The position numbers and the translations under genes were made by a program. A stretch of DNA of 64,000 nt, from contig JBIKKO010000002.1 in the NCBI GenBank assembly GCA_044360315.1, positions 355 through 64,354 of the forward strand, given 5' to 3'. Each line of letters starts with the position of its first letter. The first letter of the stretch is position 1. The notes under the pieces were generated by a model. It saw only the letters and a program-made list of their open reading frames with translations. It was not told where the DNA came from and did no database searches. The stretch comes from Oligoflexales bacterium. Its GTDB lineage: Bacteria; Bdellovibrionota_B; Oligoflexia; Oligoflexales; RGVZ01. Shown here one piece after another: positions 1 through 25,228 of this stretch.

Positions 1-2
1 AG

Positions 3-1196: not shown

Positions 1197-1249
1197 GAGC
1201 AAAAGTGGGTCTTACTGCTACTTAATCCAATAGATGAGGGGTAACGAAA

Positions 1250-3878: not shown

Positions 3879-4173
3879 GTTGACAACCTATTCTGTTGGG
3901 TTCAAAATTTTTTTTGCTAGTGATTCAATTTACCTCAAATTTCGTCCAAGTAAAGACGTGTTTGGTTAGTTGTGCTCTAATTTAGGCGTTCCCCTGAAGC
4001 AAGCGCTTGGTTGGACTAGATGCTGCTGCCGGGGTTGAATGTGTCAGCTCACAGGATGTTTGTAGGTCGGTTTTTGGGCCCTATCAGTGGTGAGAGAAGA
4101 TCGATATCGGTTATAAACATCAGCGATATGCTAGGATGTTGATCAGACGGGATCCAAACTCTTGGAATGATCT

Positions 4174-4896
4174 ATGGCGCTTTTAGGAGGCGTGGGGCAA
4201 ATTATGAATGATCGTGATTTTGATGATCAGCGAGATGCGGATGATTGGATCAGCGTTGTGGAGAGCAATTCCGGTAGATCTCGACTTGAGGAACTTCGGC
4301 CGTTGATCAGTGCTCTGGAGGGTGATCAGGTAAGGGGGCATGTTCTAGATATCGGTTGTGGCCAGGGACAGATTCGATCTCTGTTTGATCCCAAGAGATG
4401 GACATATTGGGGCGTCGATCCGTCACCATATCTCATCAGTCGTGCCATAGAACTGAACTCAGAAGCAACGGTTCACTTTATTCAAGGTAGTGCTTATAGT
4501 ATTCCTTTTGATGACGCGCATTTCTCTGCAGCAATATCAATCAATGTCTGGCATTTGTTACGGGATATTAATCAAGCGGCTAAGGAGATAATGCGGATAC
4601 TAAAGCCTAACGCTCGCTTCTTGATCGTGACTGCCCACCCCGATTCTATAGATCTGTGGACTCAGCTTTATCAAAGTTATCAGCGCCAAGATAATGGACT
4701 TGTGGGTTTCAATGTGCGTGAAGATGGTTCAAAATCTGTGGATGAGTTATATTTCCATAAGGCTAACGAAATCCGGGATGTACTGCTTGAAAATCGCGCG
4801 AGCAACATTGCGATGCGACCTTTTCGCATTCGAGAGTCATTTGGGCCAGTTTATCTGGCGATTTCTGGAAATAAGTTGGCGGCAAGCAGCCTCTGA
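4174..4896 (+). CDS. Class I SAM-dependent methyltransferase
   Basis: Motif I VLDIGCGQGQ, post-I WGVDPS, and a later LKPNARFLIV block. The start is ambiguous (4174 or 4204). Confidence 0.75.
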   Translation: MALLGGVGQIMNDRDFDDQRDADDWISVVESNSGRSRLEELRPLISALEGDQVRGHVLDIGCGQGQIRSLFDPKRWTYWGVDPSPYLISRAIELNSEATVHFIQGSAYSIPFDDAHFSAAISINVWHLLRDINQAAKEIMRILKPNARFLIVTAHPDSIDLWTQLYQSYQRQDNGLVGFNVREDGSKSVDELYFHKANEIRDVLLENRASNIAMRPFRIRESFGPVYLAISGNKLAASSL

Positions 4897-4907
4897 AGGT
4901 GTTGGCT

Positions 4908-5420
4908 TTACACATCCTTCTTCATGTGCATATGCATCGGATAACTGCGCACCGAGCTTCCGTTAATCATACGCGTCTGTATCGGTCCTGAGTCCTCGAA
5001 GCCAAGTTGACGGTAAAAGTTGTGAGCGGTAAGGGACGAGTCAAGGGATATAGATTGTGCCCCAGCATCGCGAGCAGCTTGGATCATGAGCTTGGCTAGT
5101 TGTTTGCCTAGACCCCTGCCAAGAACCTCTGGTGTTATATAGAGAGCATGAAGATGGGCCTGTGGCTCAGAATCCGATACAAAAATTCGGATGTATCCTA
5201 CGCCGTGGATGATGTGTTTGTATTCGATGACCCAAACCGTCTCCTCTGCTATCTGTCTAATCCAGCGATCTTCGAGTGGTCGATTTCCCCATCCAAGAAC
5301 CTCAGCCTCCCCATGATCTTTTATGCAAATTTCGCGAATCGAGCGCATGTGAGCTTGGTGAATGCCATCTTCATCTCCAGGGCGGGCTTTACGAATTTTG
5401 GGTTCGTCTTGCGTTATCAT
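4908..5420 (-). CDS. GNAT family N-acetyltransferase
   Basis: 170 aa. Acetyl-CoA motif A VLGRGLGKQLAKLMI and C-terminal NFYRQLGF. Confidence 0.8.
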   Translation of the reverse strand: MITQDEPKIRKARPGDEDGIHQAHMRSIREICIKDHGEAEVLGWGNRPLEDRWIRQIAEETVWVIEYKHIIHGVGYIRIFVSDSEPQAHLHALYITPEVLGRGLGKQLAKLMIQAARDAGAQSISLDSSLTAHNFYRQLGFEDSGPIQTRMINGSSVRSYPMHMHMKKDV

Positions 5421-5651
5421 AAGATTGTCCTACGGAACCGAGGAAAGCACTGTTTAAAGATACATATGGTCGTATTAACGGTCAAGCCTGGATGATTATA
5501 GTGACGCGCCCTGTTACCAGGCGCTTTTATTGCATAGGCGCGGGATATGTGTGAATTCCTAGATCTCATTGGAGGGTGATTATGAGCCACGCAGAATGAT
5601 CCGAAGGATTTCGCTAACTGTCAGCCGATGCTAATAATCCATACCAAACTT

Positions 5652-6005
5652 TTAGATTAAAACCGTCTTGGCCGGATCATAGTATGGTGCATCCATACTG
5701 ACGAAAGTCACTTCACCACCGATCCCCCGATAGCTGTGAGGCTCACCTTGAGGGATCGATATGAAATCCCCCTTGGTCATTCGATATGTTTTGCCGGAAA
5801 CTTCTGCGAGCAACTTCCCATCAAGAACCATAATACTGTGGGAAGCGTCAGGATGAAGGTGGCGCGCAAGTTCTCCGCTAAATTTAACTAGATTGATTCT
5901 AATCCGATCGTCTTTTTTTATTGTCCAGACCCTCATGTTTTGTTGATTGATAACGGCGGCTCCAATCTTAAGATTCTTGAGTCGACTAAATATGAGAGAA
6001 TTCAT
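5652..6005 (-). CDS. Cupin domain protein
   Basis: 117 aa with cupin motifs G..ARHLHPDASHSIMVLDG and GDFISIPQGEPHS. Confidence 0.7.
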   Translation of the reverse strand: MNSLIFSRLKNLKIGAAVINQQNMRVWTIKKDDRIRINLVKFSGELARHLHPDASHSIMVLDGKLLAEVSGKTYRMTKGDFISIPQGEPHSYRGIGGEVTFVSMDAPYYDPAKTVLI

Positions 6006-6278
6006 ACGGCCCTCCTGTCAAAGCTTGAAAATTGGTTTTGAATGCAAATGACTATGGTCTTCTGAAAGCTAATCTCACCATTTGCTGTGCCTAATCTGTC
6101 GGTAATTTAAACATCGTTTGTGGAAAATCATGTAAAAACCTCTGAACGATCCCGTTGGCTTGAAGCAAATTGGTACTGAGATGGCGTCAAATGACGACAC
6201 AACTGGATCTCGAAGTAGTCAGAATGTCAAGTGCCTGTAAATGTGGGTAGGCCGATGCATGAGACAATGATTCACAAA

Positions 6279-6629
6279 CTAATCGGCCATAGGAGAGACA
6301 GACGTGTCGGCCTCCACGCAGGTAAACAAAGCTGAGGCCTTAGCCTCGTAAGTATCTCCGGCGACAGTACTTGACGTCAATATACATCTTAACGTCCATT
6401 CAGACTGTAGTAATGGCTCTTCTGGATCGCACCAATTTGCCGCTTCGTTTAGTACAAGTTTTTTCAACCTATAGACAATATCAGGATGTATTTCGTTGGA
6501 CCATCGATTACAGTAGTGAACTTCTTCTTGTACACTTACTTCTTTGTGTGGAACACCAAACCCATTTATTGGAAGGAACGATAGAGCCACTAACACAGGC
6601 ATTCTTTGGCTTTTTTTGCGCCATTGCAT
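6279..6629 (-). CDS. Hypothetical secreted protein
   Basis: I prefer the internal ATG at 6629 (GAGGG SD 7 nt upstream), giving MQWRKKSQRMPVLVALSFLPING with a signal-like N-terminus. Divergent from the LysR gene. No recognisable family. Confidence 0.45.
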   Translation of the reverse strand: MQWRKKSQRMPVLVALSFLPINGFGVPHKEVSVQEEVHYCNRWSNEIHPDIVYRLKKLVLNEAANWCDPEEPLLQSEWTLRCILTSSTVAGDTYEAKASALFTCVEADTSVSPMAD

Positions 6630-6685
6630 AAAATTACCCTCGGTTTTAAGGTTGTTTTCGAAACAGCGACATAGTAGCAAAGTTA

Positions 6686-6706
6686 AATTTGACAACAATG
6701 CAAATT
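6686..6706. promoter_or_regulatory. Inverted repeat AATTTG-N9-CAAATT (contains a T-N11-A LysR-type box) in the divergent intergenic region
   Basis: Perfect 6-bp arms read directly, 20 bp upstream of the LysR ATG (6727) and between divergent genes. This is the classical LysR autoregulatory geometry. Confidence 0.35.
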
Positions 6707-6726
6707 AAATCAATAATTGTTGCGCA

Positions 6727-7587
6727 ATGAACACTGATCAGTTAAAGCAGTTTTGTACCGTCTACGAAATCGGAACCTTAGCTAAGGCCTCCGAGCTTCA
6801 CCATTTAACTGTAGGTGCTCTGTCGAGATCTATAAAAAGACTTGAAGAAGAGGTTGATATTCGCTTGTTCACTCAAGATGGTAGATCTCTTAGAGTCACG
6901 GAGGCTGGGAAACGGTTTTACATACTTTGTAAACAAATCATTACAGACCTAGATACTGGGATAAAGGAAATGAGATCCGAATCCAATGAGAAGAAAGAAA
7001 TTCGGATTGGGTCTTTTGAGGTTTTTACATCTCGTCTGCTAGTTGGTATTCTTAGTCAATGTTTCAAAGATCGGAGAGCATACCTAGCAGAGTTGGCTCC
7101 TGGAGAGATTGAAAAAGCATTACAAGGTGGAGCGATTGATCTCGGTATAACCTATGTTCCGGTGCCTAAAAAGGGTCTAGAACACATTAAAGTTGGTAGC
7201 TTCAAAATGATTGCATGCTCGGGCTCAAAGAGGTTTAGCGGATGTAATTTTTCGGACATTCCGTTCGCAATTCCAACCACGCAAATGACTGAAAACACTG
7301 CTCAGCTGGCAGCACTTGACGGATGGCCTCTATCATTTCCAAGAAAAATTAATTATCGATTTGAACTGTTGGAAACTGCTTTGGAAGCCAGTCGTAAGGG
7401 TTTATCAGCAGTTCATATTCCAGAGTTTATTGCGGCTGAAGAAAAATTTATGTTAATCCCGTTGCCTCCAAACTTTCGCCCAGTAACGATGACGTGTTTT
7501 TTAGTTAAGCGAGAGGGATTCTGCGATGATTCAATTGGAACTTTGGTTCGTGAACTAAAGGTGAAAATTCAGCAAAAGATTGCGTAG
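6727..7587 (+). CDS. LysR family transcriptional regulator
   Basis: N-terminal wHTH LKQFCTVYEIGTLAKASELHHLTVGALSRSIKRLEEEVDIRLF, followed by a ~200-aa effector-binding-sized C-terminus. Confidence 0.85.
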   Translation: MNTDQLKQFCTVYEIGTLAKASELHHLTVGALSRSIKRLEEEVDIRLFTQDGRSLRVTEAGKRFYILCKQIITDLDTGIKEMRSESNEKKEIRIGSFEVFTSRLLVGILSQCFKDRRAYLAELAPGEIEKALQGGAIDLGITYVPVPKKGLEHIKVGSFKMIACSGSKRFSGCNFSDIPFAIPTTQMTENTAQLAALDGWPLSFPRKINYRFELLETALEASRKGLSAVHIPEFIAAEEKFMLIPLPPNFRPVTMTCFLVKREGFCDDSIGTLVRELKVKIQQKIA

Positions 7588-8088
7588 ATGGTACTGAGTG
7601 ATCTTGAGTCGACATCTGCCAATCGGCGAACAAAATCAAACCTGAATTCACTTGTTGGTATGATCGATGGAGGCATTAATTTTACCATGTATTGAAATAG
7701 CACGATCATGGTGGGTCCATCTGATTCCATGGCGGAACTCGCTATGTTGCTCTTAAAGTTGCTTAGTGTCGGGAGCTCTGCTGAGGAAATCGTAAACTAC
7801 CTAGCGTGGTCTGCCCAAGGATTGAAAAGCGACATCTAATCTCTTCGTCTTTGATGATGCCAAAACAGCGATCACGTCGGCTTGATAAGTCGATCATGTG
7901 ACATTGCGACTAGATCTAGCTAAGTAAGGGACTTAGACCCTCTATGCTTGAGGGATTCCTTAATGAGAAGGAATGTAGCGCACTGCTTCATCAACGTATT
8001 GTGAAGTGAGATCCAAAAATCTTCTTTAATTCTATCCTAACCTGTTCAGGATGATCTGCCGTTCCACGCTGACAATTGACCCCAAGGT

Positions 8089-8310
8089 TTGGCTGCTGGC
8101 AGGATAGATTCAGGAACGGATGTGATTGCTCTGCGAAAATTTGTAGGATTATCGCAAGTTGATTTCGCCAAGGCTTTGGGTATAAGTGTCGGAACTTTAT
8201 GTAATTGTGAACAACGTCGTCGAATTCCTGAGGGCCCCGTATTATCGTTGTTGCGAATTGCTGCACGGCATCCGCGAATAATCAGCGCAAACCACACTTC
8301 GGTTGCTTAG
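8089..8310 (+). CDS. YiaG/XRE-type HTH protein (type II antitoxin-like), probably 5'-degraded
   Basis: DVIALRKFVGLSQVDFAKALGISVGTLCNCEQRRRIPEGPVLSLLRIAARHP matches the YiaG pattern (..IR...GLS...FA..LGVS..T...WE.GRR.P.GPA..LL..I...P). The ORF starts at TTG. The expected N-terminal segment (STLTIDPKV) lies in another frame starting at ATG 8051. Confidence 0.55.
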   Translation: MAAGRIDSGTDVIALRKFVGLSQVDFAKALGISVGTLCNCEQRRRIPEGPVLSLLRIAARHPRIISANHTSVA

Positions 8311-8485
8311 TCGATTAAGTGGCCAATAGCTGCAAAAAAAAGGCTTTCTGAAGTGAATTAATTCTTTTTCGCCCCGCGGGCAGTGGATAAGCCTACTGCG
8401 ATGTCATACCCGGCGCTGGAACTTGACCAACCCATTTGCTCTTTTGGGCGAAAATTAGATGAAGTGTAAACTTAAATAATCTCCC

Positions 8486-8752
8486 TCAAACTCTTTTTTC
8501 CGGGACCGTACGCCGAAGCTTTTGAAACAAAACATACATCAAACAAGACGCTAAAGGAAGAAGGCACGCGATTGCTACCAAACCATAAACAAACGTTGTG
8601 TCATTTACAGGAAAGCCTTGAGGGTCCGTACCTCTACCATCTTCAAAGTGAATCGAAAGATAGCGCTCGTCGAGCATCATAAACATCCACACGGCCGGAA
8701 GCACCATGATAGCAGAAAAACCCGTCCACAAGAATTTTATGTATCGCAACAC
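8486..8752 (-). CDS. Small membrane protein (2 predicted TM helices)
   Basis: 88 aa with two hydrophobic stretches (FSAIMVLPAVWMFMM; VYGLVAIACLLPLASCLMYVLF). Last gene of a tight 3-gene minus-strand unit. Confidence 0.5.
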   Translation of the reverse strand: MLRYIKFLWTGFSAIMVLPAVWMFMMLDERYLSIHFEDGRGTDPQGFPVNDTTFVYGLVAIACLLPLASCLMYVLFQKLRRTVPEKRV

Positions 8753-8761
8753 TTTTGGGGC

Positions 8762-9274
8762 CTACTTATCAAATTTGATGGGAAGTTTAACGATCGTACC
8801 AAACTGTCTTTGCTCGCCTGGCCTGTAATACAAGGAAATCCAGCCGACAGACGCCATCCATCGCAGTTGAGTTTCGCTCTTTTCGCTATATTCGAACGTT
8901 GAATTTTGGATTGTCACATCAAATCCGAAATAAGTGAGAAAAAACTCCGCACCCAAACCAACACGTTGTCCACCTGGCGTCTTATCTATGGTCGCAAGGG
9001 CGCCGAGTCCTCCTAAACCGATGGATCTAAAGTAGCTGAGTTCAAATCCTTGGATGATTCCATTTACTGAGGTTGCGTAGTGGTAACCAGGCAGGAGATA
9101 GTGTCTGTCTGCCCACTCCGCTCTGTTGCGATTCACAATGGGAACACACAAAAATGCTTCAGGCCACTGACACGCTGAATCACCCATCAATCGGATCCCA
9201 GACAACCCACACTCCGCACGCACGAAGAACCCGAGCAGAATGTACAAGATGTTTAGTTGAGTGCGATTTGTCAC
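8762..9274 (-). CDS. Hypothetical protein
   Basis: 170-aa ORF, 9-19 nt from its neighbours. Hydrophobic N-terminus and a beta-strand-like alternating C-terminus. No family recognised. Confidence 0.5.
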   Translation of the reverse strand: MTNRTQLNILYILLGFFVRAECGLSGIRLMGDSACQWPEAFLCVPIVNRNRAEWADRHYLLPGYHYATSVNGIIQGFELSYFRSIGLGGLGALATIDKTPGGQRVGLGAEFFLTYFGFDVTIQNSTFEYSEKSETQLRWMASVGWISLYYRPGEQRQFGTIVKLPIKFDK

Positions 9275-9293
9275 TTCTATTCCCTGTACCTAT

Positions 9294-10028
9294 CTATTCG
9301 GCGACCTGAAGTGGTGCGACCGCCTTGTCTTCCAAACAGGCTTTTTCGGAAGGATAAGACTGATAGTTCTTAATGAGATGAGCACAGATTTTTAATTTCA
9401 GCTTGAGAATACGCTCACATCCTTCAGACGGATCTTTCATCTCTTCTCGGTAGCATTCACTTGCTAAGATAGTCTCGACGTCGTCACTACCGATCACATA
9501 TCCACAGTATTTGGCCAGCCAAGGAAGCACGCCGCCTTCTGCCTGACACGGCGTTGTAGAAGGTGCAGAAAGAACAGACGGCGCATACGAGTCCGCTTGA
9601 TTGATACATGTGAAATAAGGCGACTCCATTTTCGCATCAAGATGACATTGAAGAGAAATCGCTGGCGCGGCTGTTCCAGTGGGGACAAAAATGGCCGAAA
9701 GTTCTAACTGAAATTCATTCCATGCGATCTTCTCGATCGAGAAATCTTGAATCTTGTCTTTCTCTAAAGAGTAATCTTGATCATGATACCGCAGCTTACA
9801 AACACGCTGCGAAGTCTTAACCTGAGGTTTCTTGTCTCTAAGGTTGATACGTTCAAGCAGGATACAAGCATCTGACTCAGAATTAAAAAGTACATAGCGA
9901 AAAAAATCGCCGTTTTCTTTGATGGATGCACGGGACTTCTTTACTTCGCTGATCTGGGGATCAATACCGGTGCGGGGCCAACATTGGACCAGAAACAGAC
10001 TCAAAAAAAGGATCATAAGAAAATTCAT
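9294..10028 (-). CDS. Hypothetical Cys-rich lipoprotein
   Basis: 244 aa. The N-terminus MNFLMILFLSLFLVQC looks like a signal peptide plus lipobox. Many Cys residues in the mature part. Confidence 0.55.
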   Translation of the reverse strand: MNFLMILFLSLFLVQCWPRTGIDPQISEVKKSRASIKENGDFFRYVLFNSESDACILLERINLRDKKPQVKTSQRVCKLRYHDQDYSLEKDKIQDFSIEKIAWNEFQLELSAIFVPTGTAAPAISLQCHLDAKMESPYFTCINQADSYAPSVLSAPSTTPCQAEGGVLPWLAKYCGYVIGSDDVETILASECYREEMKDPSEGCERILKLKLKICAHLIKNYQSYPSEKACLEDKAVAPLQVAE

Positions 10029-10373
10029 AGATTCCGACTGTCCTCCTTTGCTATGGCTACCACTTACCCAAAATTACGCGAAACGCAATCTAATCATAGC
10101 GATATCTGTTTAACACGTTGTTCCCTGGCTGCGCAACAGACGTAGGGCATCTTTTACAAAAAACGTGTAGATTCGCAACAGAGCCCCAACGCCCTTTGGC
10201 TTGGGGTTGACGGGGCAAGTGCCAATCACTAAGACATTTGTACCAACTCCGGCGCCGGAGTTAGGGAGAATATGGTCTTATGTTGGCGATCAAGATAATG
10301 CGACATAAGTGGCAATACCCTGCAAAAAAGATTCGACCACTTAGCAATTCTTTCACGCAATCCCATTTGCTCC

Positions 10374-10402
10374 CAAAAAACTCCTTAGCCTGCCAAGGCT
10401 AA
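10374..10402 (-). terminator. Rho-independent terminator downstream of brnA
   Basis: On the minus strand, TTAGCCT-TGGC-AGGCTAA hairpin (10402-10385), then GGAG and T6 (10379-10374). It sits 23 nt after the brnA stop. Confidence 0.6.
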
Positions 10403-10424
10403 TGGATAATCGCTTTTGGTTTTT

Positions 10425-10646
10425 TTAGCTCCCAGTCTTTTGCCAGTTAATCGAGGGCTTTTTTTCGTTTGTGGCGCAGTCACGAAGGTACAGGTTTATA
10501 AGATTTTGATAGGAAATGCCTGTTTCCTCGGCCAAAGCCTTAAAATAGGCGATCGTACCCTTATCAAGATTGATTGTGACTTGGCGCTTAGTCTTGCTGT
10601 TGTAGGCACCGCGCTTACCTTTTGAAAAATCATATTCTTTTCTCAC
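10425..10646 (-). CDS. brnA: BrnA-type antitoxin (CopG/RHH-like, DUF4415 family)
   Basis: GTG start at 10646, preceded by GAGGGGG 6 nt upstream and 1 nt after the brnT stop. Sequence RKEYDFSKGKRGAY..VTINLDKGTIAYFKALAEETGISYQNLINLYLRD matches the BrnA pattern. Confidence 0.8.
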   Translation of the reverse strand: MRKEYDFSKGKRGAYNSKTKRQVTINLDKGTIAYFKALAEETGISYQNLINLYLRDCATNEKKPSINWQKTGS

Positions 10647-10647
10647 G

Positions 10648-10923
10648 TCAAACCCCCTCGTATTGCTTGCGTTCCATTTTGGTTGCCTTGCGAGCCGAGA
10701 TGATGCGGATTGTGTCTCCAGTAATATCGACATGCACCACAACCAGAAGCTGCGCTTTAATGCTCGCACCAATCAAGATCAGCCGATCCTCATCGGCGGC
10801 ACTATCCGGATCATCAATCAAAATATGCATCGGGTCATAAAAGCAGGAGCTAGCTTCTGCAAACGTCACCCCATGCTTCTTCTGATTGGGCTTTGCTTTG
10901 ACGGGATCCTACTCAAATTTCAG
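10648..10923 (-). pseudogene. brnT: BrnT-type toxin (DUF497) with premature stop at the conserved Trp codon
   Basis: Minus-strand reading gives (L)KFE*DPVKAKPNQKKHGVTFAEASSCFYDP...LLVVVHVDITGDTIRIISARKATKMERKQYE. The family begins M.FEWD..K...N..KHG..F.EA. TAG at 10911-10909 replaces TGG, and the would-be start is CTG (10923-10921) after GGAGGG. Confidence 0.75.
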
Positions 10924-11012
10924 CGTTCACCCTCCTGCAAAGCAAAAACCAGAATCGCCTACATAATTATTTTATAATGCAATTCTTTGTTGATCTTCGT
11001 TGGTGACGCAAT

Positions 11013-11032
11013 TTATCCGTGATTATCCGTGC
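11013..11032. repeat. Tandem 10-nt direct repeat TTATCCGTG(A/C) x2
   Basis: Read directly: ttatccgtga ttatccgtgc. Confidence 0.9.
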
Positions 11033-11540
11033 GCGTTTGAGTTCAGTCGGGAAACTAAGGGATCGGACAGGACGAAACATGGAGGTTAAGTCACTGACAT
11101 TCTTAGATAAAATCATGATTCAAACAACTTACGCACTTTGCTTTTCGTCTCCAGGTGGGGCCGCCATTGCAAGCAGTATTCGAACCATCCTGCAAACCTC
11201 TCATCCTCCGATGCCTCCCAGAAGGCGGCGGTACCTCTAGCAATAAGCCTTCTGAGCGTTTAAGGCACTTTAAGTCGATTGAAAAGTCTCCCTTCCCGCC
11301 GCTCACCATCTGGCGGCACTCACCACTCGCGGTCGCAGGGGCGCCCTGGCTCGAACCGCCGTAACTTGAAACTACTTCCGACCCCGTTATTTCAAATTCC
11401 GCATATTGGACTATTTTTTAGCCAAGAATCAGGAGATAATGGCCAATCTAGAATCTATCCGGCAAAATCTCGTTGCCGAGACGCTGTCAAGACTGGGAAT
11501 CGCTTGGACTTCTCCACCCAAGAGACGGCAATCAGTCATG

Positions 11541-11568
11541 TGTCCCAGAAAAACTGTCCCAGAAAAAC
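11541..11568. repeat. Perfect 14-nt tandem duplication TGTCCCAGAAAAAC x2
   Basis: Read directly. It ends 5 nt before a TTGACA hexamer (11574-11579) that could be the -35 of the glmS leader promoter (18-nt spacer, TAACCT). Confidence 0.9.
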
Positions 11569-11644
11569 TGCATTTGACACCCCATTAGGGCCTGCGTTAA
11601 CCTTGGGTCAAGGAATCATGGTGATTTCTTGTGCGTGAGAGATT

Positions 11645-11777
11645 AGCGCCAGACCTGTCGTGCGGGCAGGTGACGAGGGCAGGGTTCATCGAAGTTTTCG
11701 GCGGGTGACCCTGAAGGTTAGCTCAACCTTTAAACTGATCAACAAATCCGTTCAGCAATGAACGAGCCAAAATGATC
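11645..11777 (+). ncRNA. glmS ribozyme: glmS ribozyme (GlcN6P-activated self-cleaving riboswitch) in the glmS 5' leader
   Basis: The sequence reads A|GCGCCAGA, P1 hairpin ACCUG-UCGUGCGGG-CAGGU, UGACGAGG, GCAGGG...CCCUG, UUCAUCGAAGUUUUCGGCGGGUG, hairpin AAGGU-UAGCUCA-ACCUU, and GAUCA...GUUCA-GCAA-UGAAC...UGAUC. These align block-for-block with the Bacillus ribozyme core as I remember it. Located ~200 nt upstream of glmS. Confidence 0.85.
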
Positions 11778-11979
11778 TGTAGAGTGGAGTCGATTTATCG
11801 ACCCTGGTTTTTTCGTAAAATCCTCACTCAAAAATTTCCGCAAAAAATTGATTGGGCCATGACTCCCACAAGGCAGTCTCGCCCGGCTTTTTCATGTTTA
11901 ATGATTAAGGCCGTGGTGATGCTCGTCTAGGGATTTCTTGGTTCTGAGAAGCGCATGTCTATTGCGCAGGAGAGACTCT

Positions 11980-13788
11980 ATGTGTGGCATCGTAGGTTTT
12001 GTTGAATCTGAGCAAAGTGATTTGGGAATCAGACTTGTAGAGGGGTTATCTGCTCTCCAATACCGCGGGTACGACTCCGCTGGCATTGCTGTGGCATCCA
12101 AGGGACGCCTTAGGGTGGTCAAGTCCGTTGGCGATCTTGCAAAATTGAAAGAACGGCTGAGCCATCAGAAAATAGTTGGCAATGTTGGAATGGCACATAC
12201 GAGATGGGCGACACACGGCGCCCCTTCGGAACGCAATGCGCTGCCCATTGAAACCAGTGATGGTTCAATGTGCATAGTCTTCAATGGAATTGTCGAAAAT
12301 CATTTTGAGCTTAGACAGCAGCTCATAAATGAGTCCTACTCGTTTAGCTCTGAAAATGATGCGGAGACTCTTCTTCTGTGGATAGCAAAACATTATGCCG
12401 GAAATCTCGAGATGGCTGTACGAGAGGCCTTAGGAGCAATTAAAGGGCGCTATGCATTCGCGTTGATGCACCAAGACCACCCGCATCAGATCATTGTCGC
12501 CAGGCGCAATAGCCCGTTGGTTATCGGGAAAGGGCGTCATGGGTTTGCGATTGCGAGTGATGTTCTTGCAATTCAAAATAATGTCGATGCCGTGTACTAC
12601 CTGGGGAATGATTTGGTGGCGATCGTCCAAGCGGACTCATGTCGGATCAGCAACAATGCAGGGGCTAAAAGCGTCGCGGATTTCATCCCCATTCAAAAAG
12701 ATGACTTGATGGAAATTAAATCGGACTACGAAACATTTACCTTACAGGAGATATTCGCCCAACCGGACACTATTGCCAACAGCCTCCAGGCGGCGCTTGA
12801 AAGTCGTGAAGCAATCGAAAAATTGTCGACAGATATTCAGCACGTGACTTTGATTGGCTGTGGTACAGCATATCACGCGTGTGTGATTGGCAAGTCATTG
12901 ATAGAAGAATTCGCGGGTATCCGCACGGATGCAAACATCGCAAGTGAGTTTCATATTGGTTCACCAGTCATCGACGCTAAAACATTGGTGGTCCTCGTTT
13001 CACAATCCGGTGAGACAGCCGACTCATTGGTTTGCCTCGAGATGGCTAGAAACAAGGGTGCAACAATCGCTGTTCTCTGCAATGTGCCAACCAGCACCAT
13101 GGCTCGACTTGCGGACGTGTTTATTCCGATCGCCTGTGGCAAGGAGATTGGAGTGGCATCAACCAAGGCCTATACGGGTATGCTTTTACAGTTGGTTTTC
13201 CTCGCAATTGCAATTGGCATCAGAAATGGCGAATCAACAGGCGACGTTTGGGCGGAGCATGAGTCCGCTGCCAGAGAGCTTCCAATGCTAATCAGTAAGA
13301 CTCTCAAGACGCGTGATCAAGTGGAAAGACTTGCGCGTACCCTCCGTGAACGGAGAAATTTCGCTTTTATGGGTAGAGATGTTTTCTATCCAACTGCATG
13401 CGAAGGAGCTTTAAAACTTCGTGAACTTTCTTATCGGAATGCTGAGGGGTTTGGTGGTGGCGAACTCAAACACGGCACATTGGCACTTGTTGAGCCAGGT
13501 TACCCAGTCATCGCTGTCGCGCCGAGAGGCAGAAGCTTTGGAAAGATGATCGGCAATATACAGGAGATCCGCTCACGAGGGGCAAAGGTTATCGGGGTTA
13601 TTTCTGAAGATGACATTGAGGCCGAAAGTGTTTGCGATGAAGCTATCAGAGTGCCTGCAACCCTGGATGCCTTTATGCCATTATTGACGGTGATTCCACT
13701 CCAGTTATTTGCTTATGAGTTTGCAAAAACGCTTGGCAGAAACATCGATCGCCCGCGCAATCTTGCAAAGAGTGTAACTGTTGAGTAG
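11980..13788 (+). CDS. glmS: Glutamine--fructose-6-phosphate aminotransferase (isomerizing)
   Basis: Starts MCGIVG (catalytic Cys2) after AGGAGA SD. Also LQYRGYDSAGIA, HTRWATHG, two SIS domains (SQSGETADS), and C-terminal PRNLAKSVTVE. Confidence 0.95.
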   Translation: MCGIVGFVESEQSDLGIRLVEGLSALQYRGYDSAGIAVASKGRLRVVKSVGDLAKLKERLSHQKIVGNVGMAHTRWATHGAPSERNALPIETSDGSMCIVFNGIVENHFELRQQLINESYSFSSENDAETLLLWIAKHYAGNLEMAVREALGAIKGRYAFALMHQDHPHQIIVARRNSPLVIGKGRHGFAIASDVLAIQNNVDAVYYLGNDLVAIVQADSCRISNNAGAKSVADFIPIQKDDLMEIKSDYETFTLQEIFAQPDTIANSLQAALESREAIEKLSTDIQHVTLIGCGTAYHACVIGKSLIEEFAGIRTDANIASEFHIGSPVIDAKTLVVLVSQSGETADSLVCLEMARNKGATIAVLCNVPTSTMARLADVFIPIACGKEIGVASTKAYTGMLLQLVFLAIAIGIRNGESTGDVWAEHESAARELPMLISKTLKTRDQVERLARTLRERRNFAFMGRDVFYPTACEGALKLRELSYRNAEGFGGGELKHGTLALVEPGYPVIAVAPRGRSFGKMIGNIQEIRSRGAKVIGVISEDDIEAESVCDEAIRVPATLDAFMPLLTVIPLQLFAYEFAKTLGRNIDRPRNLAKSVTVE

Positions 13789-13795
13789 TCGACAG

Positions 13796-13826
13796 GCTTG
13801 GACGCCCTTATGAAGGGCGTCCAAGC
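13796..13826. terminator. Perfect 14-bp stem-loop between convergent glmS and LysR stump (terminator-like, no U-tract)
   Basis: GCTTGGACGCCCTT-atg-AAGGGCGTCCAAGC, 8 nt after the glmS stop. There is no T-run on either strand, so its function is uncertain. Confidence 0.4.
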
Positions 13827-13862
13827 TCGGCTCAGATCACCCATATGCTCGTTAAGCTTCGC

Positions 13863-14172
13863 TTAACTCACTTGGGCCGTAACACGCAGATCTTGTTGTT
13901 CATGCTCGATCTCAAGCTCCAGACTCTCAATATCTGCAAGAATCTCGCGCGCTCGATACAAATACGTTCTCCCGACTTCGGACAAATGTACTGCTCGCGT
14001 TGTGCGTAGAATGAGCTTTACTTTTAACCGCTGTTCCATCTGGGCTATTGTTTTACTAACTGCTGATGAAGTTATTCCCAAGGCCTCTGCTGCTTGAGAA
14101 AAAGACAACTTCTCTGCGACTACGGAGAAGGTTTTGATTTCGTTAAGCCGTTCTCGTTGAATTTCAATTCAT
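13863..14172 (-). pseudogene. LysR-family regulator remnant (HTH plus linker only; frameshifted start, effector domain missing)
   Basis: Translation gives ..EIQRERLNEIKTFSVVAEKLSFSQAAEALGITSSAVSKTIAQMEQRLKVKLILRTTRAVHLSEVG.. and stops after ~100 aa (DLRVTAQVS*). ATG-AAT-TGA at 14172-14164 becomes in-frame MNEIQRER.. if one T is removed. Confidence 0.75.
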
Positions 14173-14284
14173 TCCTTATATTCACCAATATTGTGAATTT
14201 CAATCTATTTATTGATCTAAGGGAATTAGATAGAGTTGCTGTGTGGCGGCCACTACTTATCAAACATCTAAACTAGGAGCATTT

Positions 14285-14906
14285 ATGAACATTTCTTATC
14301 TCAATATGAAACTTCTTGCTGCAAGTCTATTGACGGTTGCTATCACGGCACAAGCCGAAATGATCTATCACAAGGACCGTAAGAATACATTGCTCGCGTT
14401 TCAACAGTTCTTGGAAGGACCGCTCAACAGCCAAAATCGCTCAACTATCAAGGCAACCCGAGAGGGCATCATTGCTCAACCCAGCAACGTTGGTGGTTTC
14501 ACACTGTTCAAATTCCGGCAAGGAAAGGTCTCAACGTTATGGTGCAGGCCCATACGAAGCTGACTTCTTTGCTCGAGAACTGCAGATCATCGCAGGATTC
14601 GAACCCAATCTTCCTGCTGACAATCACGATCCGGGGGCGTTTTATGGCGTAAAACCAGTTATTCAAGGATTTGAAGTTGTAGGAACACAAGGTCTATCAC
14701 CCTATGACTTAGTGATAGGTGATACTTACGAACTCACTATGGAAGCTCGCGGACAGTATATCAAGACCTACCGCCGTTCCGTGGAACATCAGCAAGAGCG
14801 AGTTTTAGTTTCGAGTTTTAGTTTCGAGTTTTATCAATGTGGACAGGCAAACAGATCCCATTCGGGGCGGTTCACCGATAGCGCTTTTGCTTCAGGCTTT
14901 TCCTAG
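14285..14906 (+). pseudogene. Secreted hypothetical protein, apparently frameshifted (two overlapping frames)
   Basis: ATG 14285 follows AGGAG and gives MNISYLNMKLLAASLLTVAITAQAE (signal peptide). This frame stops at 14563. A second frame (14472-14906) is open across the junction. A 13-nt tandem duplication lies near the 3' end. Confidence 0.5.
14799..14833. repeat. 13-nt tandem repeat CGAGTTTTAGTTT x2.7
   Basis: Read directly. The unit length is not a multiple of 3, so copy-number change shifts the reading frame of the surrounding ORF. Confidence 0.9.
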
Positions 14907-15031
14907 TGATGTGAAAAGCCCTGTGTTCCACGAAATCTCTGTTGAGGAACTTTAGGAAACTAATGGATCTCACCATGAACGTCCGCGCCACTGTGTCCTA
15001 ATCATTTTTTGAAAATCAAGCCATAGAATGA

Positions 15032-15649
15032 CTAAGCAACTTTTTTTGGTATTCGAGAGATCTTAACCGTAACTTTGCCAACCTTAACAGTGATGCTGAC
15101 ACGAACGCCATTTTTAGTGACTAAAGTTTGTTGGTCTTGCTTTTCTTCAACATCATCAAACTGCACAGCCAAAAGCTCACCATTTGGCGACGTGAAATAC
15201 ACTCCGTTACCCTCTTTGGCTTCGTGTGCATCACCGAATGGTCCGGGGTACCAATTGACTGACAGCGGTGCGGCACCCTCAATAGGATTAAACAAAACCT
15301 TTGGCTTATGTATCATAGCTTCAGCCTCTTCAAATTTTTTGTGAGGGTTTCTAATCGAGGTACCGGTCGGATACATCGAAGTAAAAAAATTTCCAATAGA
15401 AGTGATCTTTACGACTGCATAAAGAAATCGCTTATTTTCCAATCTATAAAACAGCTGGTAAAGCTTTGGAGCTTTCAGATCATCAACCAAAATTTCAGTT
15501 GGATCTTTTAAGACCAACTCCAACAGCTCAAGCAAAATGACGTCAGGTAATAAGAAGTGCTCTTGTGCGTGACGCAGCTCAAGTTCGCCGACGATAATCT
15601 GATCGCCAGTTACAGCTGTAATAATTTTTGCGATTTTACGTTTCCCCAT
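15032..15649 (-). CDS. Two-domain hypothetical protein: N-terminal half resembling small barnase/RelE-fold toxin families (DUF4258/PBECR-like), C-terminal half resembling DUF2283 (YuzE-like antitoxin)
   Basis: Start preferred at ATG 15649 (MGKRKIAKI..). N-half: ELRHAQEHF..PDVILLELLELVLKDPTEIL....YQLFYRLENKRFLYAVVK....FFTSMYPT. C-half: PLSVNWYPG..DAHEAKEGNGVYFTSPNGELLAVQFDDV. The resemblance is judged by eye only. Confidence 0.4.
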   Translation of the reverse strand: MGKRKIAKIITAVTGDQIIVGELELRHAQEHFLLPDVILLELLELVLKDPTEILVDDLKAPKLYQLFYRLENKRFLYAVVKITSIGNFFTSMYPTGTSIRNPHKKFEEAEAMIHKPKVLFNPIEGAAPLSVNWYPGPFGDAHEAKEGNGVYFTSPNGELLAVQFDDVEEKQDQQTLVTKNGVRVSITVKVGKVTVKISRIPKKVA

Positions 15650-15768
15650 ATCGCGTCCACTTGAGCAGTTAGATTTGATCGAAACTTTTCCGATCAAATC
15701 TAACTTGCCAAAATTTCAAGACAATTCTATTCGATGTTACCCGAATTTTTGTCTTACTTCCCGGAAAA

Positions 15769-16120
15769 TGGAGCCGGCGGGAATCGAACCCGCGTCCATA
15801 CACGCGTCGGAAAAAGCACTACATGTTTAGTCTTATGATTTGTCCTCTTGCCTTACGCGCCCATAGACAGGCTCATCTGACCGCAGCCTGATTGTCGTCA
15901 TGCCTGACTCTCCAGACGGAAGAGCCTGACACCAAGCCACATCGATTGCGCCATCCCCCAAAGCCGTGGCCGCTTTGGGTTCGACGGCAGCTAAATTAAG
16001 CTGCGAGTGCGTATTCGTTGCCGAATAAGCGTTGGTACGCCTTTAATAACCGGGTGACGTCCCCACCCCGGACATGCGCTTTAACTCGACGACCGTGCAT
16101 GTCGAAACCATGACGGCCCC
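15769..16120 (-). ncRNA. ssrA: tmRNA (transfer-messenger RNA)
   Basis: Minus strand begins GGGGCCGUCAUGGUUUCGAC and ends GGACGCGGGUUCGAUUCCCGCCGGCUCCA. The acceptor stem has a G3:U pair, the T-arm is GCGGG-UUCGAUU-CCCGC, and CCA is not encoded. Tag ORF GGC AAC GAA TAC GCA CTC GCA GCT TAA encodes GNEYALAA* (16022-15996). Confidence 0.93.
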
Positions 16121-16331
16121 CCAAGGAAAAACAGCTGATAGTAGACTATAACGTCTCATTAAACAAGGGAAACGATCAAAATGCCGGGAGCAGGCGCAAG
16201 CAGGGCTGCCTGGTTCCAGCTCAAAAGGTAACAAGCTAGGAGGAATATCACAACAAATAGCCAGTCGTTCGATTTGAACGATATCGTGTAATTGGCTCAT
16301 TCCAGTTTTGAGCGGTCGTCAGATGCTGCAC

Positions 16332-16613
16332 TTATGGAGGATCGAATACACCATATATGGACTCCGATTTTTTATGTTGCAATGTGTGATTACTAGGTAC
16401 AATTCTGTAAGTTGATCGCTGCATCATATCATTAGCAGTTAGTGCTAGGTCTGACTTTGGCGAGCTCGAGGAAAGGTTTATGCCGTTGGGGATGAGTTGG
16501 CTCAGATCATTAGTGTTGGGTCCCCCGCCCAAGCCACCAAGCATGCTGCATGCCGATCCCAGAGCTCCAGACACACAGATCGCCAGGTGGAGTTTGGAAA
16601 ATTTGATGTTCAT
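16332..16613 (-). CDS. Small Gly-rich lipoprotein, paralog 1
   Basis: 93 aa. MNIKFSKLHLAICVSGALGSAC (lipobox), then LGGLGGG, with C-terminal ..SESIYGVFDPP. Resembles the adjacent ORF. Confidence 0.6.
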   Translation of the reverse strand: MNIKFSKLHLAICVSGALGSACSMLGGLGGGPNTNDLSQLIPNGINLSSSSPKSDLALTANDMMQRSTYRIVPSNHTLQHKKSESIYGVFDPP

Positions 16614-16642
16614 ATCCGGGAAATCTCCTTTACTAGCTACTG

Positions 16643-16906
16643 CTATTCTGGCGCTGAGAAAAGACCGTAAATGCCGCGAGTTTCTGTAGAGGAGCTAGGT
16701 ACTAGCTGATGTGATAATGCTCCTCTGGTGCTGGCCAGGTTCATCTCGCCCGAGTCGTCTCCGGTGAGACCTAGTAGACCTCCTCCTCCTCCGCCGCCTC
16801 CTCCTGTTAACATTCCCAATAGCGGGCTAAGGAGGGCGCATCCGCTACTTAAGAAAGCGGTTACAAGAATTGCAAGAACAACGCGCTGAGATTTTATATT
16901 AGGCAT
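16643..16906 (-). CDS. Small Gly-rich lipoprotein, paralog 2
   Basis: Start at ATG 16906 after AAGGAG. MPNIKSQRVVLAILVTAFLSSGC (lipobox), a G9 run, and C-terminal ..TRGIYGLFSAPE. Confidence 0.6.
   Translation of the reverse strand: MPNIKSQRVVLAILVTAFLSSGCALLSPLLGMLTGGGGGGGGGLLGLTGDDSGEMNLASTRGALSHQLVPSSSTETRGIYGLFSAPE
16779..16805. repeat. Trinucleotide simple-sequence run (CCT/CCG)x9 encoding Gly9 on the minus strand
   Basis: cct cct cct cct ccg ccg cct cct cct, read directly inside paralog 2. Confidence 0.9.
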
Positions 16907-16956
16907 GATAAACTCCTTGCTTTTTTTGACTTGAATCACGTCAATCATTAGTTGGT

Positions 16957-17994
16957 TTACGGTGAAAATGACTGTCCGAAAGCCGCGATATCTTCGGGGT
17001 GCGGGCGTACGACAAGTGTGACCATATCCTCGCGATCAAAGATCTTTTTACAGTCTAATGTACCCTTATACCGTGATGATTTGGTCGAGGACCGTACTGC
17101 AAAGCCGGCGAAGTGACCGTCGACATAAACGCCTGCTCCGGTATCGTAATTTCTGCCGTCTGAAGATCCGCAGAGACCAGAGCCGCTAAACTCCCAGAGG
17201 TGCTCGCGCTCCGGATGGAGCTTCGCTAGCGGCGTAGACTCTCCTAATATGGGGGTAACAACCGCAGCATTCCGGGCTTGCATTCCGTCGAGATTAAATT
17301 TCTTATCTTGATCCCTGTTATCGGCAAGGCCCGTCTCGCCAAAGCCTACTACAACGACCTTGTTGCCCTCCGTCAATTGCATTTTAGATAGCTTAGCAGC
17401 AGGAATCGCACCGTTTTCTTTGGGCAGCCCAATCATAACATAGCTGGTTTCAGCAACTCTAAGGTTTCGGCCACCTTCTGCCGCGATTGGACTTTCCCTT
17501 AGCAGTCTCTGGGCTAATCCCGACACTGTTCCTGGAGGCGGGGTACTAGGACGAAGCCCCACAGCCAATAGGGACGTTTTCACCTTAGGTTGTTCAGTAT
17601 TACTTTTTTGAACAGTGACGCCCGACTGGTCGATTGCAATATCAAAAGATAAATCTGGATATTGAAGAATCTTGAGTTTTGCAGTTTGAAAAAAGGGAAT
17701 AGATCCTTTATCGAAGCCATCGGCAAGGCTCATAATTAAGGCCACGTGACTACTTAAACCAACATCAACAATTGTTCCTACGTTCCTGATTGTGTGCTCC
17801 TGACCTGAACCATTACGACCTGTCAGCTCCACGTAAACAGTCGCATTGTATTTTTCGGCCAAAGCGGAACTTCCACCCGCAACGCGAAGGGAGGTTCGGT
17901 CTGATGGCTGACAGCTGCTCATTGTCATAGTCGCAACACCCAAGCCTGCAAACAGCAAGGATGAACTCAACTTCCTTAGATGATTCTTGAACAT
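16957..17994 (-). CDS. Trypsin-fold (S1-like) lipoprotein with non-canonical active-site motifs
   Basis: ATG 17994 follows GGAGG. MFKNHLRKLSSSLLFAGLGVATMTMSSC (lipobox), RVAGGSSA (IVGG-like), VVVVGFGETG (GWG-like), and C..YDTGAGVYVDGHFAGFAVRS aligning to GDSGGPLV..G...GIVS with Ser->Thr. No clear TAAHC. Confidence 0.5.
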   Translation of the reverse strand: MFKNHLRKLSSSLLFAGLGVATMTMSSCQPSDRTSLRVAGGSSALAEKYNATVYVELTGRNGSGQEHTIRNVGTIVDVGLSSHVALIMSLADGFDKGSIPFFQTAKLKILQYPDLSFDIAIDQSGVTVQKSNTEQPKVKTSLLAVGLRPSTPPPGTVSGLAQRLLRESPIAAEGGRNLRVAETSYVMIGLPKENGAIPAAKLSKMQLTEGNKVVVVGFGETGLADNRDQDKKFNLDGMQARNAAVVTPILGESTPLAKLHPEREHLWEFSGSGLCGSSDGRNYDTGAGVYVDGHFAGFAVRSSTKSSRYKGTLDCKKIFDREDMVTLVVRPHPEDIAAFGQSFSP

Positions 17995-18292
17995 TTTAAT
18001 GCCTCCGTACTGTTTATCTTTAGGGCCTTTGAACCGTAAGGGAGGTATCGGTGTCGGCTTGTAGGACATGAAGGCCAAATGATAATCAATTGAAATTATT
18101 TAATTTTTTAGCGCGATTTGGACTAACTGGGTCTTCCGGGCGTCGTGCCCGCCATCGAGCCGCATTATGAATTCATATGTTGTGCAAGAGCATGGCGAGC
18201 CTTTTAAAACCAGCCTTCAGGAATCAATGAATTCTATTGGATTGGCCTGCGTCCCGTGGGTGATAATGGCTTGGTGTGAATCGAATGATGGT

Positions 18293-19216
18293 CTACCGTG
18301 TTTCAGATAGGTTTGGTGACGGATTCTTTGCAATTTTGGCACGTGTTTCGTTTGCAGACTTAACAAGAGATGAATCTACAATCGCAAATAATAATCTGGT
18401 CAAAAGTGCGATTTTTTCTTCGCTCAAATATTCCCAGCTTAGCCCTGCTTGATCACCTGAGATGAGAACGCGACGGACTCTTGCTGAAATCCGTAAAATA
18501 TCTGCTGCCCCTTTTACGTACTTGGATAATGGTAGATGTACCATGATCTGATCTCTGGTTGAGAAGTTGTGTGTTCCTTCAGCTACGCTGATTAATGCCC
18601 CGTGGATGCTAAAATCTCGGATTTGCCCTGAATACTTTATGTCACCCATATCCAAGACTTGAAAGTGAACTGGTATGTCCACCTTAAAACGTTTCGCCCT
18701 GCGGCGATTTTGGGACTCAATGCCAAATTTTATTTTTCTAAAAATGACGTGCCGAGGTTCGGATTCGTAGTGTACATACTCATCAACCTCATGCCATGGA
18801 AGTAGTTCCTGCCGATAAGAATCGACGAGATCGCCCGTGCTTTTTGTGAGGAACAAAGTCGGCATTGGTCCGTCAGTTTTGGTTTCCTTCAATTTTCGGA
18901 CAAGTCGCATCGTGTCTTGGCGAGTCAGAAACTCGTCATCAAAAATTGATAGCACTATATTTCTTGATGCGTAACGCATAACGTCATCAGAGTTTCGCGC
19001 AGTCACAAACGTTAATTTTGGGAATTGAGACTTGATAAACTTTTCAACAGCGGTGATTGTCTCGGTCTCCATCCCGGATCCTGGAGCAAAGATGACATAG
19101 CTTTTGCGTTTCTTTTTTGGCGCTTGTAAAAAGTCTTCGATAGCCTGGCCCGACTTTGTTTTTGCTTTGCTCTCTTCAGACGAAGATGCGCTTTTGTTTG
19201 CTCCAGAATCAGCCAT
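18293..19216 (-). CDS. PilZ domain protein with N-terminal receiver-like (pseudo-REC) domain
   Basis: C-terminal RRRAKR (RxxxR) ... DFSIHG (DxSxxG) are PilZ c-di-GMP motifs. The N-terminal alpha/beta domain (LSIFDDEF..MRLVRKLKE) lacks the acidic DD pair. Confidence 0.75.
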   Translation of the reverse strand: MADSGANKSASSSEESKAKTKSGQAIEDFLQAPKKKRKSYVIFAPGSGMETETITAVEKFIKSQFPKLTFVTARNSDDVMRYASRNIVLSIFDDEFLTRQDTMRLVRKLKETKTDGPMPTLFLTKSTGDLVDSYRQELLPWHEVDEYVHYESEPRHVIFRKIKFGIESQNRRRAKRFKVDIPVHFQVLDMGDIKYSGQIRDFSIHGALISVAEGTHNFSTRDQIMVHLPLSKYVKGAADILRISARVRRVLISGDQAGLSWEYLSEEKIALLTRLLFAIVDSSLVKSANETRAKIAKNPSPNLSETR

Positions 19217-19234
19217 TTTAAATTCCTTTATATT

Positions 19235-25212: not shown

Positions 25213-25228
25213 GCGCATTGGTGTCCGT

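Follow-up and report, generated by a model that had tools for sequence, protein, structure and literature searches.

We consider it highly probable that positions 11634-11790 (forward strand) of the 64-kb stretch of DNA analysed here at its full length (the window, from contig JBIKKO010000002.1) are a functional, canonical glmS ribozyme-riboswitch, which resides in the 5' leader of the glmS gene (glutamine--fructose-6-phosphate aminotransferase) of an uncultured diderm bacterium allied to Bdellovibrionota/Oligoflexia, and that the cassette of ribozyme and gene is old and has been passed on vertically. In this family of RNAs, self-cleavage with glucosamine-6-phosphate (GlcN6P) as catalytic cofactor leaves a 5'-OH on the mRNA downstream, a product that RNase J1 degrades in Bacillus subtilis (PMC3997798, PMC5473149). 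The element had been proposed beforehand from inspection of the letters alone (in the following, the original prediction). Here we present its family match and fold, its occurrence in related loci, and the leader in which it is embedded.

The ribozyme and its fold

A search of the window with all 4227 families of Rfam 15 (cmscan, gathering thresholds) returned two RNAs, a transfer-messenger RNA (tmRNA) on the reverse strand (15766-16120) and the glmS ribozyme (RF00234) on the forward strand. The latter scores 82.0 bits, far over the gathering score of 37, and thereby upholds the original prediction, which had itself suggested this search. The match covers the model from end to end (positions 1-167 of 167), with an E-value of 2.6e-17 for the whole window and of 3.1e-19 for the local region. 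A covariance model of the lineage described below (R1) gives the same RNA 186 bits, and a permissive scan of the leader (E up to 1) yielded RF00234 alone, with no second match. Each sequence block that had been quoted in the original prediction was found at its coordinates, among them UUCAUCGAAGUUUUCGGCGGGUG, the P3 strands AAGGUU/AACCUU and the GCAA-looped P4/P4a, and none of the highly conserved (uppercase) core positions of the Rfam consensus is disrupted. The block at the cleavage site (AGCGCC, cut after the A) and the core blocks GACGAGG, AUCGA and UCGGCGG-UG all occur in the window and do not vary within the lineage alignments; the bond that is cut in this family lies between A11645 and G11646, which is also where the cut had been predicted to occur. 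Compared with the extent originally given, 11645-11777, the element is about 11 nucleotides (nt) longer on the 5' side and 13 nt longer on the 3' side. It is in this 3' extension that the 3' strand of the P3.1 pseudoknot falls.

The fold was examined in a structure alignment of 23 ribozymes, of which nine belong to the lineage, eight to high-GC metagenomic loci and six to Clostridium. Standard pairs make up 94.5% of its cells and both sides change at 34 of 43 pairs; the covariation score amounts to 0.691, against 0.19 in shuffled alignments and at most 0.135 with slid partners. Among the nested helices (P1, P2, P3, P4 and P4a), compensatory pairs range from 5/7 to 7/7 per helix, with about 90-100% of the cells paired. 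The alignment was fitted to a nested model and is thus biased towards support for nested helices, but the slid controls argue that the signal is real. The P2 helix encloses the conserved core UUCAUCGAAGUUUUCGGCGGGUG, and the P1 of the window is short against most family members.

The pairings P2.1, P2.2 and P3.1, whose names we take to be those of the crystal-structure literature, lie outside the covariance model used for the alignment. Being invariant or nearly so, P2.1 and P2.2 are uninformative for covariation and speak neither for nor against pairing. P3.1 covaries nonetheless; within the lineage, its pairing CUC/GAG is found as CUU/AAG in two members (L084 and L086). As judged from the alignments, the covariation, the P3.1 pseudoknot and the pair swaps inside the lineage together mark a functional RNA that selection has kept.

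The ribozyme is followed on the same strand by glmS, and the gap of 190 nt between its 3' end (11790) and the start codon (11980) compares with about 120-230 nt in Clostridium loci. The open reading frame (ORF) is intact, as had been stated in the original prediction together with a distance of about 200 nt; the Pfam domains GATase_6/7 and SIS were found on an identical protein, and homologues match at E-values down to 1e-264. The element shares with the glmS ribozymes of Bacillus subtilis, B. anthracis and Thermoanaerobacter tengcongensis all four sequence blocks listed above, the helices P1, P2, P3, P4 and P4a with a GNRA loop, pairings consistent with P2.1/P2.2 and P3.1, and its place in the 5' leader of glmS. 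It differs from them in its host, a diderm bearing lipopolysaccharide (LPS) and allied to Bdellovibrionota/Oligoflexia rather than a Firmicute. Further differences are the minimal P1 of the lineage, a 7-bp hairpin with a loop of 4-6 nt, one additional nucleotide in the P2 loop (CGAaGUUUUCGG), an invariant 5' context (GAUUAGCGCC), and the leader motifs and the hairpin just before the Shine-Dalgarno sequence that are described further below.

Lineage, host and origin of the cassette

In a set of 5.8 billion proteins, the nearest relatives of the window's GlmS are 14 metagenomic sequences with 47-65% identity; the next ones are at most 42% identical and come from many phyla, and a protein search of genome contigs returned only matches of about 40% identity from mixed phyla. 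The lineage contigs considered here are every readable one, namely L081-L089 (L081 being identical to the window and L083 to L082), and in addition L102. RF00234 lies directly 5' of glmS in 8/8 further loci of this clade (nine contigs), at 73-91 bits, and the clade's GlmS, where complete, is 50-65% identical to that of the window. The spacer between ribozyme and start codon stays within 160-200 nt across the lineage. Ribozyme DNA is 82-88% identical among the lineage members as against 65-67% for the glmS coding sequence, and purifying selection on the ribozyme RNA, as far as these comparisons tell, is strong.

The original prediction had offered two explanations, a phylogenetic range of the ribozyme wider than usually stated or a joint arrival of ribozyme and glmS by transfer. 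The further clade loci bear out the first of them, and close relatives routinely carrying the element take away its novelty without affecting the annotation. The association with glmS is strict, in that all 32 of the 32 ribozymes found are situated in a glmS 5' leader on the same strand. A metagenome scan with the 18-mer CATCGAAGTTTTCGGCGG listed 80 loci, nine of them with a ribozyme and L102 as the sole new lineage member; the remaining loci look like chance matches.

The surroundings of the cassette differ among the lineage loci, and a tmRNA neighbour occurs in the window only. In the group of L082, L087, L088 and L089 the cassette lies amid housekeeping genes, in one case on a 573-kb scaffold: proS is located upstream in L082, and L082, L087 and L088 have a gene for an S30AE hibernation factor and gltX on the downstream side (the short contig L089 does not extend to these neighbours). 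The prolyl-tRNA synthetase (ProRS) of the 573-kb scaffold finds its named neighbours in a metagenome-assembled genome (MAG) labelled 'Proteobacteria' (64%), in Bdellovibrionota (56%), Myxococcota (55%) and Hydrogenedentes (55-57%), an ambiguity that leaves the taxonomy of the relatives loose.

One side observation from these contigs concerns annotation. On the reverse strand of L082 (9670-9861) and L083 (5801-5992), a 63-aa ORF has been called antisense and exactly over the ribozyme (9681-9836 in L082); here the structured RNA has given rise to the call of a protein that is spurious.

As for the host of the window itself, Pfam matches for a GT9 glycosyltransferase, the Kdo transferase WaaA, FlgD and FliK (Table 1) agree with the diderm context of the original prediction. 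Other products encoded in the window are a PilZ protein, a CHASE2-SpoIIE phosphatase, MutS, Obg, RlmH, RlmL and a DksA-like protein. By this predicted gene content, the host is a diderm that has flagella and makes LPS. Among named sequences, its MutS comes closest to those of MAGs called "Proteobacteria bacterium" (54-57%), followed at 49-51% by Oligoflexales, Oligoflexus sp., Pseudobacteriovorax antillogorgiicola and Bdellovibrionota, with unnamed metagenomic relatives reaching up to 77%. With moderate confidence, we thus regard the host lineage as uncultured and allied to Bdellovibrionota/Oligoflexia; the ProRS of the 573-kb relative scaffold is compatible with this placement and less specific. 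The tmRNA, 2 kb downstream of glmS, scores 137 bits and encodes the short tag peptide GNEYALAA, which resembles what we take to be the tag of Bdellovibrio (GNDYALAA).

A sigma-54 flagellar promoter, which had been part of the originally proposed context, was not recovered: at up to one mismatch, the window holds six matches to the sigma-54 consensus and none upstream of flgD or fliK. A one-mismatch match to this consensus (TGGCAC-N5-TTGCW) lies antisense inside P4a (11754-11769, reverse strand) and is almost certainly due to chance. At the start of the window (156-1196, forward strand) a bacterial serpin is encoded (Pfam Serpin, E 1.5e-69); serpins are believed to be uncommon in bacteria.

Ribozyme and glmS could have come jointly by horizontal transfer, from Firmicutes, Deinococcota or the like, into a tmRNA-associated island, so that the window would hold a foreign copy. 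The ribozyme is missing upstream of glmS in 20/20 sampled loci from other, mostly diderm phyla, among them loci of Acidobacteriota, Victivallales, Myxococcota, Planctomycetota, Gemmatimonadota and Armatimonadota and one (L046) of an 'uncultured Bdellovibrionales' MAG. Loci of Endomicrobiaceae and Chitinivibrionales, sampled in addition, are without it as well, and its distribution is therefore patchy. The cassette of the window is also only 2 kb from the 3' end of the tmRNA, a common integration site, and stands amid orphan ORFs. Indeed, the flanks (7.6-11.6 kb and 13.8-15.7 kb) are poor in recognisable genes and contain, besides orphan ORFs, an antitoxin resembling BrnA and a weak PBECR2-like match. 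To this extent the 'decaying tmRNA-flanking region' of the original prediction is a fair description, if loosely supported. An island integrated at ssrA would be marked by an integrase beside the 3' end of the tmRNA and, at the far boundary, by a direct repeat of that end. Against such an island, the ORFs from 8.7 to 18 kb hold no integrase domain, no repeat of this kind (15766-15800) was found in 1-20000, and a comparison of the cassette's flanks with PHROGs yielded neither a phage nor a mobile signal.

Both comparisons that had been suggested for the question of transfer, of composition and of GlmS phylogeny, likewise speak for a resident gene. The GC content of glmS (0.486) and that of its third codon positions (0.478) are within the range of the window genes, and its distance to the window average in relative synonymous codon usage is 0.613 (0.608 for MutS), so that glmS is among the most typical genes of the window. 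In a neighbour-joining tree of 93 GlmS sequences (100 bootstraps), the clade is monophyletic in 100/100 replicates, its branch is long, and none of the 85 other GlmS joins it as a specific sister; it stands apart from 14 Clostridium and five other ribozyme-linked GlmS and is about 40% identical to everything else. Related cassettes, moreover, lie in the housekeeping surroundings described above (proS, gltX, the hibernation-factor gene), on scaffolds of up to 573 kb. Typical composition, a monophyletic clade and the cassettes of the relatives imply that any transfer would be older than the divergence of the clade. We therefore regard a foreign copy as improbable and recent transfer as contradicted by composition and by the tree, in which the GlmS clade is not nested among ribozyme-bearing Clostridium or other sequences; the cassette apparently is old and has been kept vertically in the lineage.

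Two ORFs in the flanks deserve separate mention. One (10425-10772, reverse strand) encodes a BrnA/CopG-like antitoxin with no recognisable toxin partner, and the other (15032-15697, reverse strand, 221 aa) has the weak match to PBECR2, a barnase/EndoU/RelE-like nuclease domain. Both may be remnants of a toxin-antitoxin system or of mobile DNA.

The window stems from a 70,324-bp metagenome-derived contig, and reviews usually call the ribozyme class Gram-positive (PMC9495366, PMC5473149), from which one might suspect that a Firmicute fragment was fused to a Gram-negative contig during assembly or binning. However, the region 11193-15798, which takes in the ribozyme and glmS as well as two ORFs downstream and the 3' end of the tmRNA, recurs at 100% identity in an independent Logan assembly (SRR27421096), and the juxtaposition is therefore no artefact of assembly. 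The exact GlmS is also present in further indexed blocks (longest contigs 50-200 kb), there is no shift of composition at the junctions, and related cassettes occur in several independent metagenomes. The probability of such an artefact is, in our opinion, negligible.

The glmS leader and its predicted control

Upstream of the ribozyme lies a putative sigma-70-type promoter (Table 1), whose hexamers have counterparts at an equal distance from the ribozyme in five other loci of the lineage, two of which are close to the window. The relatives have T/GTGACA together with TAACGT, TAACTT, TAGGGT or TACTCT, and a generic consensus scan missed the promoter because its -10 box is weak. Directly 5' of the putative -35 box, a perfect tandem duplication was noticed (11541-11568, two copies of TGTCCCAGAAAAAC), which has no counterpart in the promoter-region alignment of six relatives; it could have arisen by slippage or could serve as an operator or UP-like element.

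Between the ribozyme and glmS, the leader contains variable as well as conserved elements. Hairpins of differing sequence follow the ribozyme in L084, L085, L086 and L102, and none is present in the L082 subgroup. The corresponding hairpin of the window (11789-11802) is no stabler than its shuffles, stands apart from the U-run and is missing in half of the clade, and a terminator was rejected on these grounds. By contrast, two motifs further downstream (AAAAUCCUCAC and UUCCGCAAAAAAUUGA) are kept in sequence and position in all members of the lineage (the window and, where they align with it, L082, L084-L089 and L102). They take the general form AAAAUC(C/U)(U/C)CAC, followed about 10 nt on by (U/C)UCCGCAAAAAUUAA, and lie 25-60 nt past the ribozyme. 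No Rfam family matches the motif region (11817-11851); that the conserved linker motif holds a promoter of the sigma-54 or sigma-28 type was weighed by eye and dismissed because of the spacing. Another hairpin, which abuts the Shine-Dalgarno sequence, is found in 9/9 lineage leaders including that of L102. In an RNAalifold analysis of 8 sequences its two central pairs are invariant and its outer pairs change on both sides, and it may be an element of mRNA stability or of translation.

Table 1. Coordinates in the window of the glmS locus, of the parts of its leader and of genes bearing on the nature of the host
Feature	Position	Strand	Remarks
Putative sigma-70-type promoter	11574-11603	+	-35 TTGACA 11574-11579, 18-nt spacer, -10 TAACCT 11598-11603
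glmS ribozyme, full length	11634-11790	+	RF00234; scissile bond between A11645 and G11646
P2.2, core pseudoknot	CGCC 11647-11650 / GGCG 11700-11703	+	98.9% of cells paired, nearly invariant (23 sequences)
P1 hairpin	ACCUGUC 11653-11659 / GGCAGGU 11665-11671	+	5-nt loop; both-side changes at 5/7 pairs
P2.1, core pseudoknot	CGA 11674-11676 (in GACGAGG) / UCG 11689-11691	+	100% of cells paired, invariant (23 sequences)
P2	CAGGG 11680-11684 / CCCUG 11709-11713	+	5/5 pairs compensatory, 100% of cells paired
P3	AAGGUU 11714-11719 / AACCUU 11725-11730	+	6/6 pairs compensatory, 98.5% of cells paired
P3.1 pseudoknot	P3 loop GCUC 11721-11724 / GAGU 11782-11785	+	79% of cells paired, 4/4 pairs change on both sides
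P4	ACUGAUC 11734-11740 / GAUCUGU 11774-11780	+	7/7 pairs compensatory, 89.6% of cells paired; one U-U mismatch in the window
P4a, GNRA loop GCAA	CCGUUCA 11748-11754 / UGAACGA 11759-11765	+	7/7 pairs compensatory, 93.7% of cells paired; one C-A mismatch
Variable hairpin and U-run	11789-11815	+	GUCGA-UUUA-UCGAC, then 5 nt, then U-run; fold -8.7 kcal/mol, z = -1.06
Conserved leader motif AAAAUCCUCAC	11817-11827	+	sequence and position kept in all lineage members
Conserved leader motif UUCCGCAAAAAAUUGA	11836-11851	+	sequence and position kept in all lineage members
Hairpin before the Shine-Dalgarno sequence	11951-11974	+	GCGCA 11951-11955 / UGCGC 11963-11967; abuts AGGAG 11968-11972
glmS	11980-13788	+	glutamine--fructose-6-phosphate aminotransferase, 602 aa; MCGIVG (N-terminal catalytic Cys), C-terminal KSVTVE
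GT9 glycosyltransferase	22790-23884		Pfam
Kdo transferase WaaA	23881-25212		Pfam
RNase E/G-family gene	25196-26761		
FlgD	27309-28499		Pfam
FliK	28550-31198		Pfam

From these elements the following course of events can be proposed. Transcription would set out from the conserved TTGACA-N18-TAACCT promoter and start near 11610, giving a leader of about 36 nt 5' of the cleavage site. The transcript then folds into the doubly pseudoknotted core (P1, P2, P2.1 and P2.2) together with P3, P3.1, P4 and P4a, as the Rfam match and covariation show. Going by the chemistry of the family, accumulated GlcN6P would bind the preformed pocket and act as cofactor for the cut between A11645 and G11646, and the glmS mRNA would be left with a 5'-OH. 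Degradation of the cleaved mRNA, established for B. subtilis via RNase J1, would lower the amount of GlmS. In effect, a negative feedback would act where the supply of amino sugars for peptidoglycan and LPS takes its first step.

Several points count against the canonical, vertically inherited riboswitch that we favour. The 82 Rfam bits of the window are less than the 101-124 bits of ribozymes in other lineages; its P1 is short, its P2 loop has an extra G, and P4 and P4a include non-canonical pairs. GlcN6P dependence, cleavage site and regulatory outcome are deduced from family membership, and the decay step lacks an obvious agent, as RNase J was not among the ORFs scanned in the 64-kb window, where an RNase E/G-family gene is present. 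The taxonomic placement of the host is based on one marker, MutS, with named matches of 49-57% identity, and the ancestor of the lineage may itself have acquired the cassette by an ancient transfer.

The low score, the two mismatched pairs in P4 and P4a and the lack of RNase J in the window would also suit a relic or a re-purposed element, with constitutive or GlcN6P-independent cleavage or with a role as a mere processing or stability site, and no metabolite switch; the additional conserved leader elements downstream likewise hint at lineage-specific additions. A relic would not look like this element, however, since the core (AGCGCC, GACGAGG, AUCGA, UCGGCGG-UG) is intact in the window and has remained invariant although the clade's GlmS diverged to about 50% identity, the peripheral helices are held by compensatory changes, and the link to glmS is strict in 32/32 ribozymes. 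We consider a loss of the switch function very unlikely.

Somewhat less remote, if still doubtful, is a coupling of the ribozyme to a lineage-specific leader module, composed of the AAAAUCCUCAC and UCCGCAAAAAUUAA motifs and the hairpin of invariant core abutting the Shine-Dalgarno sequence, that would link cleavage to repression, with a host decay pathway that is maybe based on RNase E/G instead of RNase J. A possible route is the pairing of CCUCAC, with weak support, either with GUGUGG of the start-codon region or with the 3' tail or P3.1 3' strand of the ribozyme; for the former, the RNAalifold consensus amounts to -5.3 kcal/mol with zero double changes. If true, such a module would make the control by this ribozyme differ in mechanism from the Bacillus system instead of simply repeating it.

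Comparison with known systems and significance

Apart from the lineage of the window, glmS ribozymes were encountered in two further settings. A locus whose GlmS is identical to that of Selenomonas artemidis (Negativicutes) possesses RF00234 at 104 bits. Negativicutes are diderm, with an outer membrane and LPS, and the Selenomonas locus therefore means that the coexistence of ribozyme and LPS is not new; the LPS-bearing host emphasised in the original prediction stands, while the weight given to it as a novelty was too great. The second setting comprises high-GC metagenomic ribozymes (L100, L103, L122, L141, L145, L148, L154 and L161), which were found through an 18-nt core stretch shared with the window (CAUCGAAGUUUUCGGCGG) and are likewise located directly 5' of glmS. 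The GlmS of the Negativicutes and metagenomic loci is merely 37-42% identical to that of the window, and their ribozymes reach 101-124 bits with the Rfam model as opposed to 50-84 bits with the lineage model, which indicates separate branches of the RF00234 family. The highest-scoring ribozyme found (124 bits) is that of L161 (GC 0.45), which has a long P1 insertion and lies at 7217-7398, 6 kb from a 5S rRNA gene and a run of eight tRNAs at 1-840.

In Enterobacteriaceae, GlmY/GlmZ and RapZ likewise provide post-transcriptional feedback of GlcN6P on GlmS synthesis in a Gram-negative cell (PMC3997798, PMC4152352). There, trans-acting small RNAs and an adaptor protein activate the translation of glmS, in contrast to the cis-acting ribozyme of the window. 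Neither GlmY nor GlmZ is found at the gathering score within the 64-kb window, which says little for the genome as a whole.

The glmS ribozyme has been pursued as a target for antibiotics against Gram-positive bacteria (PMC9495366, PMC5473149). The searchable literature apparently does not deal with a host resembling Bdellovibrionota. Earlier papers on the distribution of the ribozyme reportedly name Deinococcus-Thermus, Fusobacteria and a small number of further phyla among its carriers. The presence of the ribozyme in every sampled relative makes the present case a correct annotation and a modest extension of the host range, and not a new kind of element; we are dealing with a lineage-wide element of a well-known family in a type of host that is unusual, though not unprecedented.

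Accordingly small is the claim to novelty, as neither a new class of RNA nor a new regulatory principle is involved. What the element adds to the family is a documented host range widened by an uncultured diderm clade, represented by the window and at least eight related metagenomic loci, and a compact natural variant with a minimal P1 that lends itself to biochemical work. The antisense ORF called over the ribozyme of L082 flags a problem of annotation. Finally, the lineage offers a natural test case for the clearance of the 5'-OH cleavage product in bacteria whose RNase complement may differ from that of Bacillus.

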